Shown here piece after piece: positions 5,623 through 47,843 of a stretch of 64,000 nt of DNA. The first letter of the stretch is position 1; each line of letters begins with the position of its first letter. Position numbers and translations under genes: made by a program. The stretch comes from Malacoraja senta (Eukaryota): contig CM075988.1 in the NCBI GenBank assembly GCA_038087875.1, forward strand, positions 5,394,001 to 5,458,000. Reading direction: 5' to 3'. The notes beneath the pieces were generated by a model. That model was not told the DNA's origin and did not search any database. It worked only from the letters and a program-made list of their open reading frames with translations.

Positions 5623-6057
5623 CAACAGCTCACCTTCCATTGTAAAATGTTTGCATTGCTCACTCCACTCCCAGCCTGATCAAACAGAACTTCAGATATG
5701 TTCCTTTCCCCTGTCTGTTATTCTTGTCACTGTTTCATTCAATTTTGATAGGTTACAACACCACAATTTTGAATGAATTTCCAGGTGATCAAACATGATT
5801 TGGATAATTAAAGCAAGGTTTCCAACAAGCGTACTTCAATGAGATTATGTATTCGGAAGGAGTTCACACTTCAGGCAGAGAAATAGGAACCACACAACCT
5901 CTTCACCTCTGCTTGTTGTTGAAACTAGCTAATTGTATATTGACACACAGCAGAGTCTCCATCGCAGCCAAGATGTTTGCTTCCATAGCCAGACTTTTCC
6001 ATGTGAATAGCCTCTGACCATGGAGCCTATGTTGATGTCAGTACTTCAGATGTTGAT

Positions 6058-6609
6058 AAAGAAGGAACTGCAGATGCTGGAAAATCGAAGGTACACAAAA
6101 ATGCTGGAGAAACTCAGCATTCGCTGCTCTAGATGCCAGCTGATCTACATCGGTGAGACCAAGCGGAGGCTTGGCGATCGTTTCGCCGAACACCTCCGGT
6201 CGGTCCGCAATAACCAACCTGAACTCCCGGTGGCTCAGCACTTCAACTCCCCCTCCCATTCCGTATCTGACCTCTCTGTCCTGGGTCTCCTCCATGGCCA
6301 CAGCGAGCAACACCGTAAATTGGAGGAAATGCACCTCATATTCCGCTTGGGCAGTCTACATCCTGGGGGTTTGAACATTGAATTCTCCCAATTCTGCTAG
6401 CCCTTGCTGTCCCCTCCCCTTCATCAGCCCTCTGGTTGTCTCCTCCCCTCCCCCAGCCCTCGGGCTCCTCCTCCGCCTTTTTCCTTTTTTCCTTTCTTCT
6501 CCCCACCCCCTATCAGTCTGAAGAAGGGTTTCGGCCCGAAACATTACCTATTTCCTTCGCTCCATAGATGCTGCTGCACCCGCTGAGTTTCTCCAGCATT
6601 TTTGTGTAC
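6058..6609 (+). mobile_element. Penelope-like element 3' fragment (GIY-YIG endonuclease) with inverted terminal segment
   Basis: IRCSRCQLIYIGETKRRLGDRFAEH...HFN...GLN peptide; 14 bp TSD CTTCAGATGTTGAT at 6044-6057 and 6610-6623; 5' part includes an inverted copy of the 3' end. Confidence 0.9.
6518..6548 (+). ncRNA. Minimal hammerhead ribozyme-like core
   Basis: CTGAAGA-A-GGG-TTTCGG-CCC-GAAAC in Penelope 3' UTR; stem III palindrome mutated (ACAT instead of ACGT). Confidence 0.55.
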
Positions 6610-6734
6610 CTTCAGATGTTGATGTCAGTCTTGCAGATAGGCAGACACCACAGGAGCCAATGAAGAAAGACAAGGTCAATCTGAAGCTAATGCATGCCTC
6701 TTCCCATTAAACTCCCACTCTGCCACCTTCCCAA

Positions 6735-19229: not shown

Positions 19230-21061
19230 CCGAGGTAGGGGGTCCTGGTCTGGTAAGGAAGACAAATGATTTATTTATTCTAAACAGCATTGTAGGATTC
19301 AAAATTGAGTTCTACCACATTTGGATCCTCCAAGGCAAGAAAATTCAAACTGGTCACGAATTTTCTCAAAAGAAGAGAATAAGTTGATCAAAGGAGAATT
19401 AGAAACTTTAACCAAAAAGGGGGTAATAGAGAAGTCAGTAGAACAACACCATCAGTTTGTATCAAATATTTTTCCAAGAACAAAAAAGGATGGTGGATGT
19501 AGAATCATATTGGATCTGACAAATCTTAACCTTTATGTACAATACAAACATTTCAAAATGGAAACATTTACTAATGCAATTCAGCTAATCACAGAAAATT
19601 GCTACATGGCAAGCATAGATCTGCAAGATGCATATTATTCTGTGGCAATGCATGGTAATGATCAAAGATATTTGAAATTTAGATGGATGTCAGTTATGGC
19701 AATTTAAAGCATTGCCCAATGGTCTGACTTCAGCACCAAGATTATTCACTAAATTGCTCAAACCAATTTTAGCTCTGTTAAGAGCTGAGGGCCATGTATT
19801 AATGGCTTATTTAGATGATATCCTCATTGTAGGGGACACTTTGGCTGCTGCAAAATTGTCAGTATCCAGAGTCAAATACATTTTGAGAAATTAGGTTTCA
19901 TTATTCACCTACAAAAATCTAAATTGTTACCAAGCAAAAAGATTGATTACCTAGGGTTCACAATTAACTCGGAATACATGGTAATCACTTTGCCAAAAGA
20001 TAAAAAGCTGCAGTTAATTGAAGGTTGCATAAAACTCATTAACGAGGACACACCTTCAATTATAGAAGTGGCAAGCTTGCTAGGCAAATTAATTGCAGGG
20101 TTTCCAGCAGTCACGTTTGGACCATTGCATTATCAATGTTTACAGAGAGCTAAGGTACAAGCGTTAAAAATGAATAGAGGGCATTTTGACAGGCCCATGA
20201 AATTAACAATTCAATCCATTACAGAAATAGAATGGTGGATTAACAATGTTTCTAATGCTTCCAGAAAAGTTCTGGTAGAAACACCTTCCGTCACTCTACA
20301 GACTGATGTAAGTGCGCTGAGTTGGGACGCTACTAACATGATTTCCAGCTGTGGAGGTAGGTGGAATGTGAATGAAGTACCTTTGCTGGAAAATCTGGGA
20401 ATCAATTACCTAGAGCTATTAGGCGCATTTTACGGCCTTAGAGCTTATTGCACTGATATGGGAAATGTGCATGTTCAGGTACAGGTTGACAATACTACAG
20501 CTGTAGCATACATAAATCACATGGGTGGTATAAAATCAGAATCATGTGATAAATTGGCAAATGAAATTTGGACCTGGGGTATTGCCAGAAAAATTTGGCT
20601 GTCAGCAATATATTTACCAGGTAAAAATTAATACAATTGCAGACAAAAGATCACGTAAATTTAATGATAATACAGAATGGATGTTAAATCGGAAAATATT
20701 CACACAAATTATCACACAATTTGGAATGCCAGAAATTGATCTGTTTGCATCAAGATTGAACCACCAGTTGCCTAAGTATGTGTCATGGGAACCTGATCCT
20801 GGAGCAGTAGCGGTGGATGCTTTCTCGCTACATGGGGGTGGTGTGTTTCTGTATGCGTTTCCGCCATTTTGTTTAATCCACAGATGCATACAGAAAATTA
20901 AACAAGATTCAGCCTCAGGGATTTTGTTAGTACCAGATTGGCCTAAACAGCTATGGTACCCACTGGTGTTAAAAATAATCAACAACAAAAAAACCCTTAT
21001 GGTTATTCCAAAGCAGATTAAACTGCTTGTACACCCTGTGACTGATGAACCTCCAGTTTAA
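19230..21061 (+). pseudogene. pol: DIRS pol: RT, RNase H and Dam-like adenine methyltransferase domain (frameshifts/stops)
   Basis: KKDGGCRIILDL, FKMET, SIDLQDAY, PNGLTSAPRLFTK, YLDD; TD.S..W, INYLEL, DNTTAVAYIN.MGG; DLFASRLN...DAF...YAFPPF...PDWP. Confidence 0.93.
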
Positions 21062-27269: not shown

Positions 27270-27851
27270 TTACTTTCCTCTACATTACTTTACATTACTC
27301 ACCGCCCAACCACCCATTACTTACTTCCCTCAATGAGAGAAGGGGTAAGTTTCCAAATGTGGGATTGGAATTTGCACCACTTCTACCAATCTAACTAAAC
27401 TCTCTCTCCACAAATGTTGTTTAATTTTATAGACAATTCTGCTGTTCTCTGCTCTTTTTTTAAAATTTCAGATTTCCGATATCTGTAGTTCTCTTTTTTT
27501 GTGCTTTTTGATTGATTGGTTGACTGAATTAAAGATACAGCAAGGAAATAATCCATTGAGTTCATTCAGACCATCGATCACCTGTTCACACTAGTTCTTT
27601 GTAATCCCACTTTCTCATCCACTCCCTGCACACAGAGGGCCAATTAGTAACCTATAAACACGCTCGTCTTCAGAATGTAGGTAGGAAGGAAACCCATATA
27701 GTCACAAGGAAAAGGTGCAAATTCCACGCAGGCAGCACTAGAGGTCAAGATCGAATCCGAGCCTGGTGCAGTGAAACAGCAGCTCCACCAACTGCACCGG
27801 TGAGATGTCCTGTGTAGACAGAGAAGGAATCAGTGATTCCCCAAAGGAGGT

Positions 27852-28144
27852 AGACACAAAATGCTTGAGTAACTCAGCAGGTCAGGCAGCATCTCTGGAG
27901 AGAAGGGATGGGTGACGTTTCGGGTCGCGACCCTTCTGCAGACTGATGTCAGGGGAGTGGGCGGTACAGAGATAAAATGTAGTCGGAGACAGTAAGACTC
28001 GTCAGAGAACTGGGAAGAGGGAGGGGATCAAGAGAGATCGTCACCCATTCCTTCTCTCCAGAGATGCTGCCTGTCCCGCTGAGTTACTCCAGCATTTTGT
28101 GTCTATCTTTGATTTAAACCTGCATCTGCTGTTCTTTCCAACAC
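27852..28144. mobile_element. Penelope-derived foldback element
   Basis: Inverted arms; near-identical 16 bp TSD (27836-27851 / 28145-28160); degenerate hammerhead core on minus strand ~27914-27941. Confidence 0.8.
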
Positions 28145-29143: not shown

Positions 29144-29378
29144 GATAGACACAAAAAGCTGGAGTAACTCAGCGGGTCAGGCAGCATCTCCGGAGAAAAG
29201 GAATAGGTGACGTTTCAGGTGGAGATCCTTCTTCTCACTTTCTTTTCTGAGGAAGGGTCTCGACCCGAAACATCACCTATTCCTTTTCTCCAGAGATGCT
29301 GCCTGACCCGCTGAGTTACTCCAGCTTTTTGTGTCTATCTTCGGTTTAAACCAGCATCTGCAGTTCCTTCCCACACAT
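29144..29378. mobile_element. Penelope-derived foldback element
   Basis: Inverted arms; TSD CTAACCTGA(T/C)CTGCT at 29129-29143 / 29379-29393; hammerhead core at 29247. Confidence 0.85.
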
Positions 29379-30531
29379 CTAACCTGACCTGCTAGTTTAA
29401 TGCAACAACATGCTGTACCATTGCTTAAATTAATTCTCTTGCAGTCAATAGAACTGAAATGTGGGAACAAAGTTCAGGGTACAATCACTGCTGCAGACAA
29501 GGAATGAATTTCTTGACATACAAGGCTTCAAGGCACTCATTCACTCACTGCCTCAGTTCTCTGCTTCAGACTCTGTGTTTAAAGTTTAAGAAAATCTGTT
29601 TCCCCTGTGGGAAAAAAAACCAGGCACAGCGTTCTACAATTGTGAACATAGGAATGAGCCAAAAAGAGGTCAGTGTGACTGATATATGACGCAGTCAAAC
29701 TTCAATTGAGTGTAGTTATTTGAAAATTGGAACATCATAAATTAATCACTTTAATTACTTTGCTCTTTCTATCCAATCAACCGATCTATAATTCTTTCAA
29801 CAAAGTTTATTTGCCCCTTGATAGTTTTGAAATGTTCATTTAATCCTTCACATCATTAACAGAACTAACATGGACATAAATGAATTATTCCTCCAGAAAT
29901 TCTTCACACCATCAGATAGCTTACTGAAGATAGGATTTAACAGTTTGCACAAACTATGCTCTGGTGCTGGGAATCATATTGGCTTCTGCATGTGGAATAA
30001 GTCTCTCCATTTGATGTGGATTCTGTATTTCCAGCTAGAATCTGAAAGATCTACCATCTAAAACACTCTGCCAGACTTTACCTTTTCCACACATAAATGA
30101 ATATCCTCTTGGTTCTTGTTGTGTTTCAAGTTTATGTTTTTATTGAGTGCTTCAGTTAAAATGCCCTCGTTAGGGTTACATTCAAGGCCTGTTTTAAGTA
30201 TATTGGTGACAAGGAATCCATCTTTCAAGTCACAGCATGGAAAAGTGTAGTGTGTTCGGTATTCTGATTTGTGTGCAGGTGGAAACTGATTCCACCTAGC
30301 AGTAATCCCAATTCCCACATCACAATATATCCTGTATATTACCCAGAAAAAAAGTGCTAAAGTAACTCAGCAGGGCAGGCAGCATCTCTGGAGAACATGG
30401 ATGGCCACATTTCAGGTCAGGACCCTTCTTCAGACCGTTCACCCCCTACCACAATCAGTCAGAAGAAGGGTCCCGATCCCAAACATCATCTCTCTATGTT
30501 CTCCAGAGATGCTGTGTGACCCACTGAGTTA

Positions 30532-32105: not shown

Positions 32106-32949
32106 AATTAACTTTTCTGTTCTCTCTTTTACTACTTCCCAATGTTTAGTACGAGTGGAAATGAAAATACAGAGATGGCTCCGCAGCTTATACTACATCA
32201 GAATTCTCACCTCAGTTTTCAGGGTCATTAAAGAGAATACAAGATATTTTGACAGATCTATGGACAGGAAGGGTTTTAAAGGCTATGGACCTAATGCAGC
32301 CAAATGGGATTGGCCTGATATGCCAACTGGGTTGGCATGGACAAGATGGGCTGAAGGGCCTATTTCCATGCTGTACAGCTCGATGACTACTAACCTGAAG
32401 AATGTGGATTATGACTCATTTAGCTCATAATGCACAGATTCTGCAGGGTAGTAGTCATAGAGCTGTACAGCATGGAAATAGACCATTCACCGCCATCTTG
32501 TCCATGTCATTCCCTCAGAACGAAAGTGTTTTTTCCATGAGACTTTTGATGTTGAAAAGCACAATAGTAAAGGCACGGTGCATCGGTTAAACTGACACTA
32601 ATGAACTAATGTTTTGTATTAAATAAATCAACAGATTGCCTGATTGCATTGAACTTGAATTAAATTTCAATGCCAAGGAATTTGCTGCAATAATTGTGCA
32701 GTTTATACGTGTATTCAGTATTTTTCTGAAGTCTGATGGAAACAAGTGAAATGGAGCAATATCAGTCGATACAATTGAGAAGCCACTTATATTAATTAAG
32801 AATAAATTGTATCGTTGTAATGACAAGAGCATAATGGGATAGAAAATGTTGCCATCCAAACATGTCTTCCTGGTGAACCAATGTTCTTCTGATCTAGCTG
32901 ACTGCATTCAGTGCACATGGTGTAGTCTTTCCAAGACTGGAGAAACCAA

Positions 32950-33161
32950 GTGTGTAAGAATTATCTGCAGATGTAGGTTTAAACTGAAGAGAGACACAAA
33001 AAACTGGAATAAGTCGGCGGGTCAGACAGAATCTCTGGACGTTTCGGGTCGAGACCCTGAAGAAGTCTGAAGAAGGGTCCCGACCAGAAATGTCACCTAT
33101 TCCTTCTCTCAAGAGATGCTGCCTGATCCGCTGAGCTACTCCAGCTTTTTGTGCCTATCTT
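32950..33161. mobile_element. Penelope-derived foldback element
   Basis: 13 bp TSD CTGGAGAAACCAA (32937-32949 / 33162-33174); inverted arms; hammerhead core at 33067. Confidence 0.8.
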
Positions 33162-33262
33162 CTGGAGAAACCAAATGTGGGTTGGCTGTTTGAAAATTTT
33201 AAGAACTACAAATCTAAAAACACTCAGTGGAGATGCTGCCTGACCCACTGAGTTGCTCAAGC

Positions 33263-33488
33263 AGGTACACAAAAATGCTGGAGAAACTCAGCGGGTGCAG
33301 CAGCATCTATGGAGCGAAGGAAATAGGTAACGTTTCGGGCCGAAACCCTTCTTCAGACTGAAGAAGGGTTTCGGCCCGAAACGTTACCTATTTCCTTCGC
33401 TCCATAGATGCTGCTGCACCCGCTGAGTTTCTCCAGCATTTTTGTGTACCTTCGATTTTCCAACATCTGCAGTTCCTTCTTTAACAAC
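33263..33488. mobile_element. Young Penelope-derived perfect palindrome with back-to-back hammerhead cores
   Basis: 94 bp arms 33263-33356 and 33358-33451 are exact reverse complements; 14 bp TSD GAGTTGCTCAAGCA (33250-33263 / 33489-33502). Confidence 0.92.
33358..33388 (+). ncRNA. Minimal type I hammerhead ribozyme motif (mirror copy on minus strand 33326-33356)
   Basis: CTGAAGA-A-GGG-TTTCGG-CCC-GAA-ACGT-T: catalytic core, stem II, palindromic ACGT stem III, UH site. Confidence 0.7.
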
Positions 33489-33739
33489 GAGTTGCTCAAG
33501 CACTTTGCTTCATTTTTCCTGAAACATTAACTCTGGTTCTATTTCCACAGATGCTGCCTGACATGCTGAGTGTTTCCAGGTGAGTGGATGATTATGTTGT
33601 GGAGCATCTCTGTTCAGTCAAAAGAGATGACCATGAACATCCCGCTGTAGCTCCTAATCCTACACCTACTCTAATCTGCATGTGTGGCTTCCTGCAGTGT
33701 ATTAACAAAGTGAGACATACACTCCATGAATAACATTAA

Positions 33740-36580: not shown

Positions 36581-37489
36581 CTAGACACCCGTACTAATCA
36601 AGAATCTGTCAATTTCACAGACTTGCCTCCCTCTCCACCCTCAGTCCTACCGCAGGGCCTTGATCCAATATGTCAACCGTTCCTTTCCCTCCACATATGC
36701 TGCTTCAATCGCTGGGTTTTGTTTTTTGCCCCTGATTTCAGCACCTGCAGTCTCAACGTCAGTGTGCAATATAAAATGTTTCTCTTCTCCCTGCTGTCTA
36801 ATCTGATGAGTATTTCCAGTAATCGATTTTATTTCAGATTTGTCTTGTTTTATATTGTACAGTCAAGCAGGGGTTTTCTACATTCTCTGCCCCTTTCATC
36901 TCCTTCGATCTCTTCTCCAGACAACAGATCTGCTGAAACAACCAACCCTCGCACTCTCTCTCAGGCCAGCACTATCATTTCCATCACCATCTCCCTGAGC
37001 CTCTACTCTTTAAGAGATAATCCCTCTTTTCACCCCACATGATCCACTTGTAAAAAACAACTTGAAACACAGTTCACTTCCAATTTTGCCTACTTCCATA
37101 AAAGTCACCAACCTAAAATGTTTACGCTGTTCCTCTCCCCACGGATTCTTTATATTGCCTGCTGGCAGCAAGCCCTTTGTTTGATTTTCAACAAAGCTCT
37201 TAACTGTTCCCTGATAAATCCAAGAAGAAATTCAATATCAATTCCTTTACTGAGAGAGAGGTGGAAATGTGCACATTTCTTTCACAAGGATTTCCGCGAC
37301 CTAATAGTATAGATGGGAGCTCAATATGTTTTGGTTTAGGCTTTTTATTGTCATATGTACCGAGATACAGGGAAAAGCTTTGTTTTGCATGCTATTCAAT
37401 CAAATCAGGTGATACCATACACAAATACAGTCAAGCCAAACTCAAGTTCAATAGGTGCAATAGCCACGGAAAAGATACAGAGTGCAGAA

Positions 37490-37711
37490 GATAGACACAA
37501 AGTGCTGGAGTAACTCAGCGGGTCAGGCAGCATCTCTGGAGAAAAAGGATGGTTGGGACCCATCTTCAGAAGTTCATCGGGTCTGAAGAAGGGTCCCGAC
37601 CTGAAATGTCACCCATCCTTTTTCTCCAGAGATGCTACCTGACCCGCTGAGTTACTCCAGCACTTTGTGTCTATCTTCGGTATAAACCAGCATCTGTAGT
37701 TCTTTGTTTCA
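37490..37711. mobile_element. Penelope-derived foldback element
   Basis: 13 bp TSD ACAGAGTGCAGAA (37477-37489 / 37712-37724); inverted arms; hammerhead core at 37583. Confidence 0.85.
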
Positions 37712-38770
37712 ACAGAGTGCAGAACATCATTCTCAGCGATGAATCGCATCAGTTCCAGAGACGTCCAGGTTCTGCAAAGACGTCGAGGTGAAACAGAAAG
37801 TACCCTGGCACAAGGAAGGACCATTCAGAGGCCTGATAGGAGAGGGAGAGAAAGCGTTCCTGAGTCTGGCAATCCGCACTTTCAAGCTTCTGTACCTTTT
37901 GTCAGAAGGGAGCAGGGAGAAAAAGGGATGACTAGTGTTGGGACAACTCTTTGATTATGTTGTCTGCTTTTCCGATAATGACATGGACTAAGGTCCACAA
38001 AGGATGAGATGAAGAGTGGTGAGATGGGGTTAACAGTGGATGGAGCTGTTGAGCTGAACTTGCCATGAATATTTATCGTTTCATGAGCAGGAACGATGCC
38101 ATATTGAAAGCATCATAATGCAGAAATAAATGTCGTTGTTAAGTGCTAAATGAGTAATGTAGAAAATCATGTGCCAAGGGTCTATCTGTGATTGTCATAG
38201 GGTCATACAGCAAAGAAACAAGTCCTCCAGCCTAACCTGCAGATGCCTACCAAGATACTCCATCTACACTAGTTCCACCTGCCTCTGTTTGGCCCATATC
38301 CCTCCAAACACTTTCCTATCCACGTACCTGTCCAAATGTCTTCTAAGTATTATTATAGTACCTGCCTCAATTACCTCCTCATTCTATACACCCATCACCT
38401 TTTTACGCCCATGTGTAAAAATGGTGCCCCTCAAGTTCCTATGAAATCTATCCCCTCACACCTTTAACCTATGTTGTCTGGTTTTTGTGAAGGAAGGAAC
38501 TGCAGATGCTGGTTCACACCGAAGATAGACACAAAATGGTGTAGTAACTCAGCATTTCAGGATCTTGTATCCAGAGATGCTGTCTGTTCCATTGAGTTAC
38601 TCCAGCATTTTGTGTCTATCCTCTGGTTCTTGATTCCACTACTTTAGGTGCTCTAGGTAAATGTGCATTTACCCCTTATGATCCTCTTATGAACTTTTAC
38701 ACCTCTATAAGATCACCCCTCATCCTCCTGCCCTTCAAGGAATAGACCTAGCCTGCACAACCTCTCCATA

Positions 38771-45596: not shown

Positions 45597-47843
45597 TGTG
45601 GTATTATGGAATAATAGTGTAAGGAATGCCTTTATTCTGCTGCCAGTGGTCAGGCTGCAGTGACGGCATCCGGCCTGAAGGTGGGGCTGTGGGCGTAACC
45701 AGAGAGGCCTAGGAGCAGGGCCCGGGGATGCAGCACGAGGCTGCTGCTGTAGAGAGTTGCTAAATAAAGACAGACTCCGATTACGTCGTTGTACGAGCCT
45801 CATTATAAGAATAATTCGATATGGTGTCAGAAGTGGGATGCCATGTGGTCACCTGTGGCATATGCGTCCAGGTCAATGACGCCAACAGAGCAGCGCTATG
45901 CTCAAGTAGAGAAGGAGGCATTGGCTGCAACGTGGGCATGTGAAAGGTTCAGCTGTTTCATCCTGGGAAGACCATTCGAGCTGGAAACTGACCATAAGCC
46001 GTTGGTGAGTCTGCTGGGAAGGAAAGCTTTGGATGACCTCCCACCAAGAATCCAAAGATTTAGGATGAGACTCATGAGGTACAACTATACAGTCAATCAT
46101 GTCCCTGGCAAAAGCCTGTGGACAGCCGACACCTTATCCCGTGCTCCTCTGAGAGCCGCAAGAGCACACACAGACACAAGCCTATTAGAGGACACCAACA
46201 TCTATGTAGACTCTGTCATCAGCAACATTCCTGTCAGTGGAGATTATCTGAGCAGCCTACGTGAGCACCTGAAGGCAGACAGCACATGCTCTGCACTGAT
46301 GGAGTACTGCACAGACGGCTGGCCCGACAAAAGTCAACTGCAGGGAGTGCTGAGACATTACTGGGCTGATAGAGCAGTGCTGACTGTGCACGATGGGCTG
46401 CTGCTGCGGGGCACGAGACTCGTCATCCCATCAGCCTTACAAGGTGATGTGCTGCAGAGACTACATGAGGGACACCTGGGGGTGACAAAGTGCAGGGGCC
46501 GGGCCAAACAGACGGTATGGTGGCCAGGACTCAGCAGCCAGCTGAATGACATGGTGCTGAAATGTAGAACCTGCATCCAAGAGAGAAGGAACGTCAAAGA
46601 GCCGCTGATGCCAACGGAGATGCCAGACAGGCCTTGGCAAACCTTGGGAGCTGACCTGTTCACGCTGAAAAACAAGACTTATCTAATAGTAGTAGATTAT
46701 TTCTCAAGGTAGGTGGAAGTTGCGCTGCTGTCACACACAAGGTCCACAGATGTGGTGGTGCACCTGAAATCCATGTTTTCTCGTCATGGAATTGGGGAAT
46801 TTCTTAAAAGTGACAATGGGCCCCAGTTCTCAGGTAGCCACTTTAAAGCCTTTGCAGCAGAGTATGGCTTTGTGCACATCACGAGCAGCCCCAAGTTTCC
46901 TCAGAGCAATGGGGAGGCGGAACGCGCTGTACAAACCGTGAAAAACCTGCTAACAAAGGCATCAGACCCATATCTTGCATTGCTGGCCTACAGAGCAACC
47001 CCTCTACAGAACGGCTATAGCCCGGCCGAGCTGTTGATGGGGCGCCGCCTCCGCACTACAGTTCCTGCCCTTCCAACCCTGCTGAATCCAGTTTTGCCTG
47101 ACTACAACGCGCTGGGGGCCAAAGAAAGGGAGAAGAGGAGGAACGACGCAAGATCCTTCGACAAGAGGCACGGAGCGAGAAACCTGGAGCCACTCGTACC
47201 TGGGGAGGATGTGTGGATCACCGATGCACGAGTCCAGGGCACAGTGCTATCTACACACAACACCCCTCGCTCTTATATCGTCCAGGTGCCTCAGGGCACA
47301 CTGAGGAGGAACCGGCATCACTTGGTGCCGCTGCAGACCAACAGTGGGGTAGTCGATGCTGATGAGCCACCGGTGGGAGAAGATTCACCTACACCAGAGC
47401 CAGCTCCACCAGTGACAACATCACTCAGCAGAGAGGGCCCCACCACAGAGACGGTGCGGACCAGGTATGGGAGAGAGGTTAGAAAGCCGCAGAGACTTGA
47501 TTGGTGATTTATTGATTTGTTTGATCAGGGACAGGTCTTTCAGCAAAAGGGCAGAATAAACCCCTTAAGACCTGCAGAGACAAAGGTAGTCCACCCTTTG
47601 TTCTCAAAGAAAGGGAGATGTGGTATTATGGAATAATAGTGTAAGGAATGCCTTTATTCTGCTGCCAGTGGTCAGGCTGCAGTGACGGCATCCGGCCTGA
47701 AGGTGGGGCTGTGGGCGTAACCGGAGAGGCCTAGGAGCAGGGCCCGGGGATGCAGCACGAGGCTGCTGCTGTAGAGAGTTGCTAAATAAAGACAGACTCC
47801 GATTACGTCGTTGTACGAGCCTCATTATAAGAATAATTCGATA
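45597..47843 (+). mobile_element. Internally deleted Gypsy (Mag-like) LTR retrotransposon inserted in a HE1 SINE
   Basis: 225 bp LTRs (45597-45821, 47619-47843) differing at one visible base; 5 bp TSD TTAAC; PBS TGGTGTCAGAAGTGGGAT (tRNA-Leu-like); PPT AAAGAAAGGGAGA. Confidence 0.97.
45844..47507 (+). pseudogene. pol: Gypsy pol remnant: RNase H C-part and integrase, one in-frame TAG at 46710-46712
   Basis: PVAYASR..Y.Q.EKEALA, TDHKPL, ADTLSR; HHCC (HEGH..CRTC); D,D35E (VVDYFSR, SDNGPQF, NGEAER). Confidence 0.95.

Follow-up and report, generated by a model that had tools for sequence, protein, structure and literature searches.

The window, i.e., the whole 64-kb stretch of DNA analyzed here, was scanned for palindromes and contains a single perfect one with arms of at least 12 nt. 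Its two arms (33263-33356 and 33358-33451, 94 nt each) are 100% complementary around A33357, as an earlier note on this DNA had reported, and the 14-bp target-site duplication (TSD) that it described, GAGTTGCTCAAGCA, is exact at 33250-33263 and 33489-33502, where identity stops. The note had placed only the palindrome inside this duplication. The palindrome is there, but the insert between the two duplications is 225 bp long and asymmetric, made of the palindrome and 37 nt without mirror copy (33452-33488), i.e., a 35-nt tail (q95-q129) and 2 nt. Base 33263 is common to the left TSD and the short arm. Positions in the repeat are numbered from q1, the C of CTGAAGA, q-1 being the base just before q1 in the parent element (L077, described below). 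The following features were delimited:

33230..33263, continuing at 33503-33506, plus strand: degraded piece of an older copy from this repeat type, into which the insertion went (28/37 identical to q48-84).
33250..33263, plus strand: left copy of the 14-bp TSD, its last base shared with the arm.
33263..33356, minus strand: short arm, q1-q94 read on the minus strand, its end being the inner one, which lacks the tail (identity to parent L077, 100%).
33329..33356, minus strand: minimal hammerhead core (CUGAAGA...GAAACGUU), helix I of 2 bp as in the parent.
33353..33361, no strand: junction dyad TCAG-A-CTGA with central base 33357, a copy of parent TCAG-T-CTGA (q-5 to q4).
33358..33385, plus strand: minimal hammerhead core, 5' strand of helix I lost (0 bp).
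33358..33451, plus strand: long arm, paired part q1-q94.
33452..33488, plus strand: unpaired tail q95-q129 and 2 nt, with one difference from the parent.
33489..33502, plus strand: right copy of the TSD.
32938..33153, no strand: older head-to-head copy of this repeat type, now decayed (72% and 82% identity).
6054..6613, plus strand: young sibling insertion (98% identity).
2011-2196, 27848-28138, 29149-29370, 30350-30530, 32938-33153, 37487-37714 and 38486-38615: older pairs of copies from this repeat type, arranged head to head.

The insertion is the mirror-image stump of a recently active Penelope-like element (PLE), one among hundreds. As a minimal insertion with an inverted pLTR it is of an ordinary kind, and the DNA of this locus is a dead repeat. 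One 102-nt contig from run X20, which may be the source of the assembly, matched 33465-33566 with 0 differences, across the joint of tail, duplication and flank. No empty allele was seen in four runs, in which the unique flank was barely covered. The earlier note had set the palindrome inside an older copy of the same repeat. The repeat type is indeed the same, but the receiving repeat is only a short remnant, because the empty site aligns to q48-84 at those 28 of 37 bases.

Other copies of the repeat occur in the window. The young sibling comprises an inverted tail arm (q129-65), the end of the GIY-YIG ORF, a pyrimidine-rich 3' UTR and a hammerhead core; it ends at q94-96 with a duplicated flank, and the YIGET motif of GIY-YIG lies at 6119-6400. 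The older head-to-head pairs number at least seven (70-84% identity). The window also holds an inverted repeat of another family (32352-32406 and 32435-32489; 55 bp, 89% complementary, 28-nt spacer), and open frames of 264-314 aa at 45768-47505 and 19819-20629, which resemble fragments of retroelement polyproteins.

Full-length copies of the parent element were reached in the same genome, whose host looks like a cartilaginous fish, by extending from the young tail sequence of the sibling. L077 (1029-4946) is a 3918-nt tandem monomer with an uninterrupted ORF of 1212 aa, encoding a reverse transcriptase (RT) followed by a C-terminal GIY-YIG endonuclease (RVT_1, E 6e-4; GIY-YIG, E 1.4e-3; both below the Pfam curated cut-offs) and carrying a long proline-rich N-terminal insert. 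The first ATG is located at q164, beyond the tail. The RT motif reads YINDC in L077 and YIDDC in L080 and L086. The linker between RT and endonuclease, CNRKRCNTC, has the form CX4CXXC and falls by motif only within the CX2-5CXXC pattern associated with Neptune/Nematis in PMC8557442. Full-length or near full-length copies (L077, L078, L085, L087, L091 and L092) are 95-99% alike, and L077, L078, L085, L087 and L092 show a truncated copy, a full monomer and an end at q1-93/129, i.e., pLTR-forming partial tandems. The long arm of the window insertion is identical to L077 at 128/129 positions and the short arm at 94/94, which assigns the insertion to the youngest subfamily. The link to Penelope-like elements made in the earlier note is supported, and ORF order, pLTR tandems, an inverted truncated copy with tail and the TSD are all those of an EN+ PLE insertion. 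A MITE or other non-autonomous DNA transposon was rejected, given two unequal ends (q94 and q129) and an RT element as parent.

This type of structure is already known. Pen2a_Av (PMC3846280; scheme in PMC8557442) likewise displays head-to-head end repeats with one arm about 35-37 bp shorter (the inverted pLTR being 37 bp shorter than the tailed one), a 30-40-nt tail at one end, a junction overlap or palindrome, a TSD around the whole unit and a pLTR hammerhead. The window insertion differs from it in that the arms are reduced to the first 94 and 129 nt with no ORF left, a perfect dyad that recurs at hundreds of sites forms the junction, and the TSD is 14-15 bp long rather than 8-10 bp. The parent resembles PAc, the Poseidon element of Anolis (PMC11167929), in its hammerhead near the ORF start, in a pair of 3' end points that bound the tail at a spacing of about 35 nt, and in the use of both target strands as primers; it differs by motif (CX4CXXC linker), which places it in another clade, and by its first ATG lying past the tail. 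PMC11167929 does not describe inverted products. What the exact ends add is a hint at the mode of PLE insertion.

Copy ends were distributed unevenly along the element. Genome-wide patterns demanding two non-parent bases upstream retrieved 1410 copy 5' ends at q-3 versus 50 at q-7, while copy starts at q26-q33 amounted to about 100-200, with patterns that use a different 3' part, so that they are only roughly comparable to the former. Contigs from related organisms showed loose ends at the same three places (q-5 to -3, q94 and q129). At the copy-end site the parent has a natural dyad, TCAG-T-CTGA, which also fits the initiator consensus with +1 at the A of q-3. Splicing was considered on account of the acceptor-like pyrimidine tract and CAG before the core, and was dropped: helix I would gain no length by splicing from the donor-like sequence close to the ATG, the bases preceding q-3 ends vary, and in L052 a duplication directly adjoins q-3.

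Among the first 90 tail matches, nine were left out (three duplicated loci, five tandem or read-through copies and one failed alignment), giving 81 tail-bearing insertions. This sample and the centre sample below are first matches on contigs C1-C2 rather than random draws, and single end points are approximate since local alignment over-extends at dyads. An adjoining inverted arm was found in 38/81, and in 32 of these 38 it ended at q90-99. Ends within q-7 to +5 were displayed by 25/81 tail arms and 12/38 inverted arms. Inversion junctions varied widely: the centre found in the window accounted for 2/38, a centre in the helix II hairpin for three and an AACGTT centre for one, and in several inversions both arms ended at q-2/-3 with 11-14 bases inserted. 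Short inserts, several of them copied from nearby element sequence, occurred at the junctions of L098, L109, L114, L118, L143, L233 and L236. Short copied inserts are typical of end joining by repair polymerases of the polymerase-theta type. Identical insertions with identical flanks were found near each other (L098/L099, L118/L120, L119/L121, L170/L171, L180/L181 and L210/L211), reflecting local duplications or assembly haplotigs.

The centre of the palindrome is shared across the genome (323 exact copies of the 29-nt centre and 931 of the 25-nt centre, versus 6200 of the young tail). The first 90 centre loci minus three duplicates (n = 87) were analyzed further. One arm ended at q85-105 and the other was tailed in 64 loci, with two short arms in one locus and double tails in two (one of them by chance extension). 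TSDs of 13-17 bp were present in 55/87, that of the window locus being 14 bp. Read towards one arm, the central base is T, the parental state; towards the other arm it is A. Of the 64 loci, 30 have the tail on the A-preceded arm and 34 on the T-preceded arm (p 0.71); the corresponding ratios per subfamily were 12:12, 4:12, 5:2 and 5:7, with five mixed loci, and both orientations occurred in all four subfamilies. Arms agreed at subfamily sites in 74/78 loci, and 18/64 had no difference between arms. Rare variants common to both arms (52, against a null mean of 12) were mostly further subfamily sites and therefore carry little weight. Agreement of the arms, together with the strict pairing of q94 with q129, suggests that one RNA was primed twice, although the agreement could also stem from later gene conversion.

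The earlier note had taken shared centres as the mark of a propagating family and random centres as that of by-products. The centre is shared, but that distinction was mis-set, and a palindrome centre common to many copies does not argue for a propagating family. Repeated de novo formation is indicated instead, because a fixed 5' end of the template on a pre-existing dyad explains the shared centre, and because in all subfamilies the identity of the central base and the side of the tail are unlinked, whereas a copied master would keep one orientation. The recurring centre is therefore the meeting of a fixed template end with built-in self-complementarity, and the stumps probably arose anew with every insertion, out of two short DNA copies made from the start of the RNA. 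The inversion by-product that the note had offered as an alternative gains support from the fixed 5' end, the variable junctions and the orientation statistics. A non-autonomous family of mini-elements, copied as units from palindromic masters by the protein of the parent, would account for the numbers of exact 29-mers and 25-mers, the uniform lengths and the loci without arm difference. At least eight masters would be needed (four subfamilies in two orientations), no arm-specific variant recurs except CpG-type changes, both ends are the two 3' ends of the parent with no mechanism for stopping at the far arm end, and exact centres are a small minority next to the young tails; such a family is improbable.

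Fold-back or self-priming was weighed as another origin. A cDNA or antisense RNA ending ...TTCAGACT would snap back over a 3-nt loop and copy itself, the endonuclease then trimming the ends. This has been proposed in PMC3846280 for head-to-head junction palindromes, a published preference that counts against twin priming here; it would yield perfectly identical arms and the exact centre TCAG-A-CTGA, and the centres do recur at natural dyads. The copied-back arm would however be the A-preceded one and could not exceed its template, so that a tail restricted to the A arm should not occur at all, although it does in those 30 of 64 loci and in the window copy. The near-even split strains this reading, whose rescue would require later trimming in both polarities, and many inversions show inserts or unequal ends, not loops. 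Fold-back is thus unlikely, though less so than the mini-element family. Twin priming is told apart from it by the 30:34 split in central-base orientation and by the pairing of q94 with q129.

The window insertion is therefore quite probably a recent, extremely short EN+ PLE insertion, likely twin-primed in a single integration, with the hammerhead cores as passengers that are predicted to be inactive. Starting from the parent, tail, duplication, fixed end points and orientation statistics observed above, integration may have proceeded as follows. Transcription of the parent RNA likely begins three bases upstream of the core, at the A of TCAGT, a start at q-3 that we infer from the copy ends and the initiator consensus. 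The GIY-YIG endonuclease would place one nick in each target strand, at a distance of about 14-15 nt, and reverse transcription would begin from both 3'-OH ends near the RNA 5' end, at about q94 and about q129, probably on one RNA. Both cDNAs would run off at q-3, ending ...TTCAGACT, and anneal through AG/CT pairs flanking an A-A mismatch. Fill-in and mismatch repair in either direction would then produce a perfect palindrome with A or T at its center, either orientation of the central base being expected because the two cDNAs meet at their 3' ends around the A-A mismatch. Annealing over 2+2 bp is weak, and a repair polymerase would be needed. In 5' inversions of L1 by twin priming, both target strands prime, the head-to-head junction shows microhomology and the TSD is kept. 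The twin-primed cDNAs of L1 copy different parts of the RNA, while in the proposed PLE event the same part would be copied twice.

Published biochemistry bears on several of these steps. A PLE protein from a lizard both nicks and extends the two target strands in vitro, with reverse transcription initiating at two internal positions, one on each side of the tail (PMC11167929). The start site is described there as alike on both strands, and the strict q94 and q129 pairing is consequently left unexplained by that work. A search of literature listings, weighted towards open-access papers, found nobody proposing twin priming for PLEs and no paper placing the start or cut site of a PLE from copy ends. 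Thousands of young copies, by their ends, make the origin of inverted pLTRs and one-sided tails in PLEs testable, and the near-intact parent in the same genome lets the published in vitro assay be run on it.

The earlier note had described back-to-back hammerhead ribozyme cores. Each strand does carry CTGAAGA-A-GGG/CCC-GAAACGTT with intact core nucleotides, including on both strands CUGANGA, GAAA, NUH, a helix II with G10.1-C11.1 and a palindromic 15.2-16.2; these are cores only, helix I being absent (0 bp) from the plus strand and limited to 2 bp on the minus strand, as compared with 2 bp in the parent and the 4-5 bp looked for. Rfam gave no match at gathering scores anywhere in the window. 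The cores resemble the minimal type I hammerheads of metazoan PLEs (PMC4209133) in their core boxes, the extra base between 9 and 10.1, G10.1-C11.1 and a palindromic ACGU without helix III. Helix I of the parent matches that given for D. virilis, and helix II is shorter in the window cores (3-4 bp) than in the published hammerheads (7-8 bp). Dual motifs on opposite strands within 100-700 bp have already been described in the same source.

In predicted folds, either transcript forms a hairpin of about -190 kcal/mol (-189.7), core bases from the third onward are paired with a probability >0.99, and freeing a core costs about 44 kcal/mol. The hammerheads are predicted to be inactive because of this cost and of the unusable helix I. 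The antisense arm would always be transcribed first at the locus and would capture the core; with this order and a single sense core per strand, neither a monomer nor a dimer ribozyme is expected. The earlier note had envisaged a tiny self-cleaving, retrozyme-like unit; as a unit with two working hammerheads it is accordingly highly improbable. Its intact cores speak for it, as does the weak cleavage of which minimal PLE hammerheads are capable when dimeric or assisted by protein (PMC4209133, PMC11167929), whereas the core is held in a 94-bp duplex, has no same-sense tandem partner and lacks a usable helix I. In PMC11167929, the hammerhead is protein-assisted, insertion does not depend on it, and the cut site yielded no reads. 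If transcribed within host RNA, perfect hairpins of 94 bp would be dsRNA substrates.

Hammerhead cleavage is predicted between q28 and q29. Copy starts at q29 (203) were in large apparent excess over the first controls (q28, 111; q31, 54), but with cleaner controls (q33, 117; q26, 103) the excess was only about two-fold after removing internal changes (2/30, 4/20 and 5/20), and the q29 pattern also takes in some q30 ends. A strong signal of in vivo cleavage at q29 was therefore dropped, and the excess stays a weak hint. The full-length copy L091 starts at q26, not q29. The copies may tentatively be regarded as a fossil record in which one RNA was primed twice at q94 and q129, its cDNAs were end-joined after reaching q-3, and a minority of templates started at the hammerhead cut; we consider this combined reading somewhat less probable than its opposite. 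If true, the q29 ends and tandem arrays would be genomic evidence of a PLE hammerhead cleaving and circularizing in vivo and seeding retrozyme-like arrays.

Two tandem arrays have units running from q29 to just inside the ORF, one of 138 bp (L065, G000:C1 about 27817435) and one of 165 bp (L073, C1 about 381271247), the q29 start allowing a 1-nt overlap in one of them. They look like rolling-circle copies of a cleaved, circularized RNA, which is a hint rather than proof. Non-LTR retrozymes (bioRxiv 10.64898/2026.07.22.740005) share with the window insertion a small size, a non-coding nature, a PLE derivation and hammerheads; they are described as two or more same-sense units in tandem, each with a complete hammerhead, while the window insertion is a single inverted pair. 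Three further arrays (L074, period 384 with 13 matches; L075, 254; L076, 275) are same-sense tandems whose PLE units have internal deletions and all contain an intact hammerhead core. These retrozyme-like derivatives of the parent family fit the retrozyme description better than the window insertion does.
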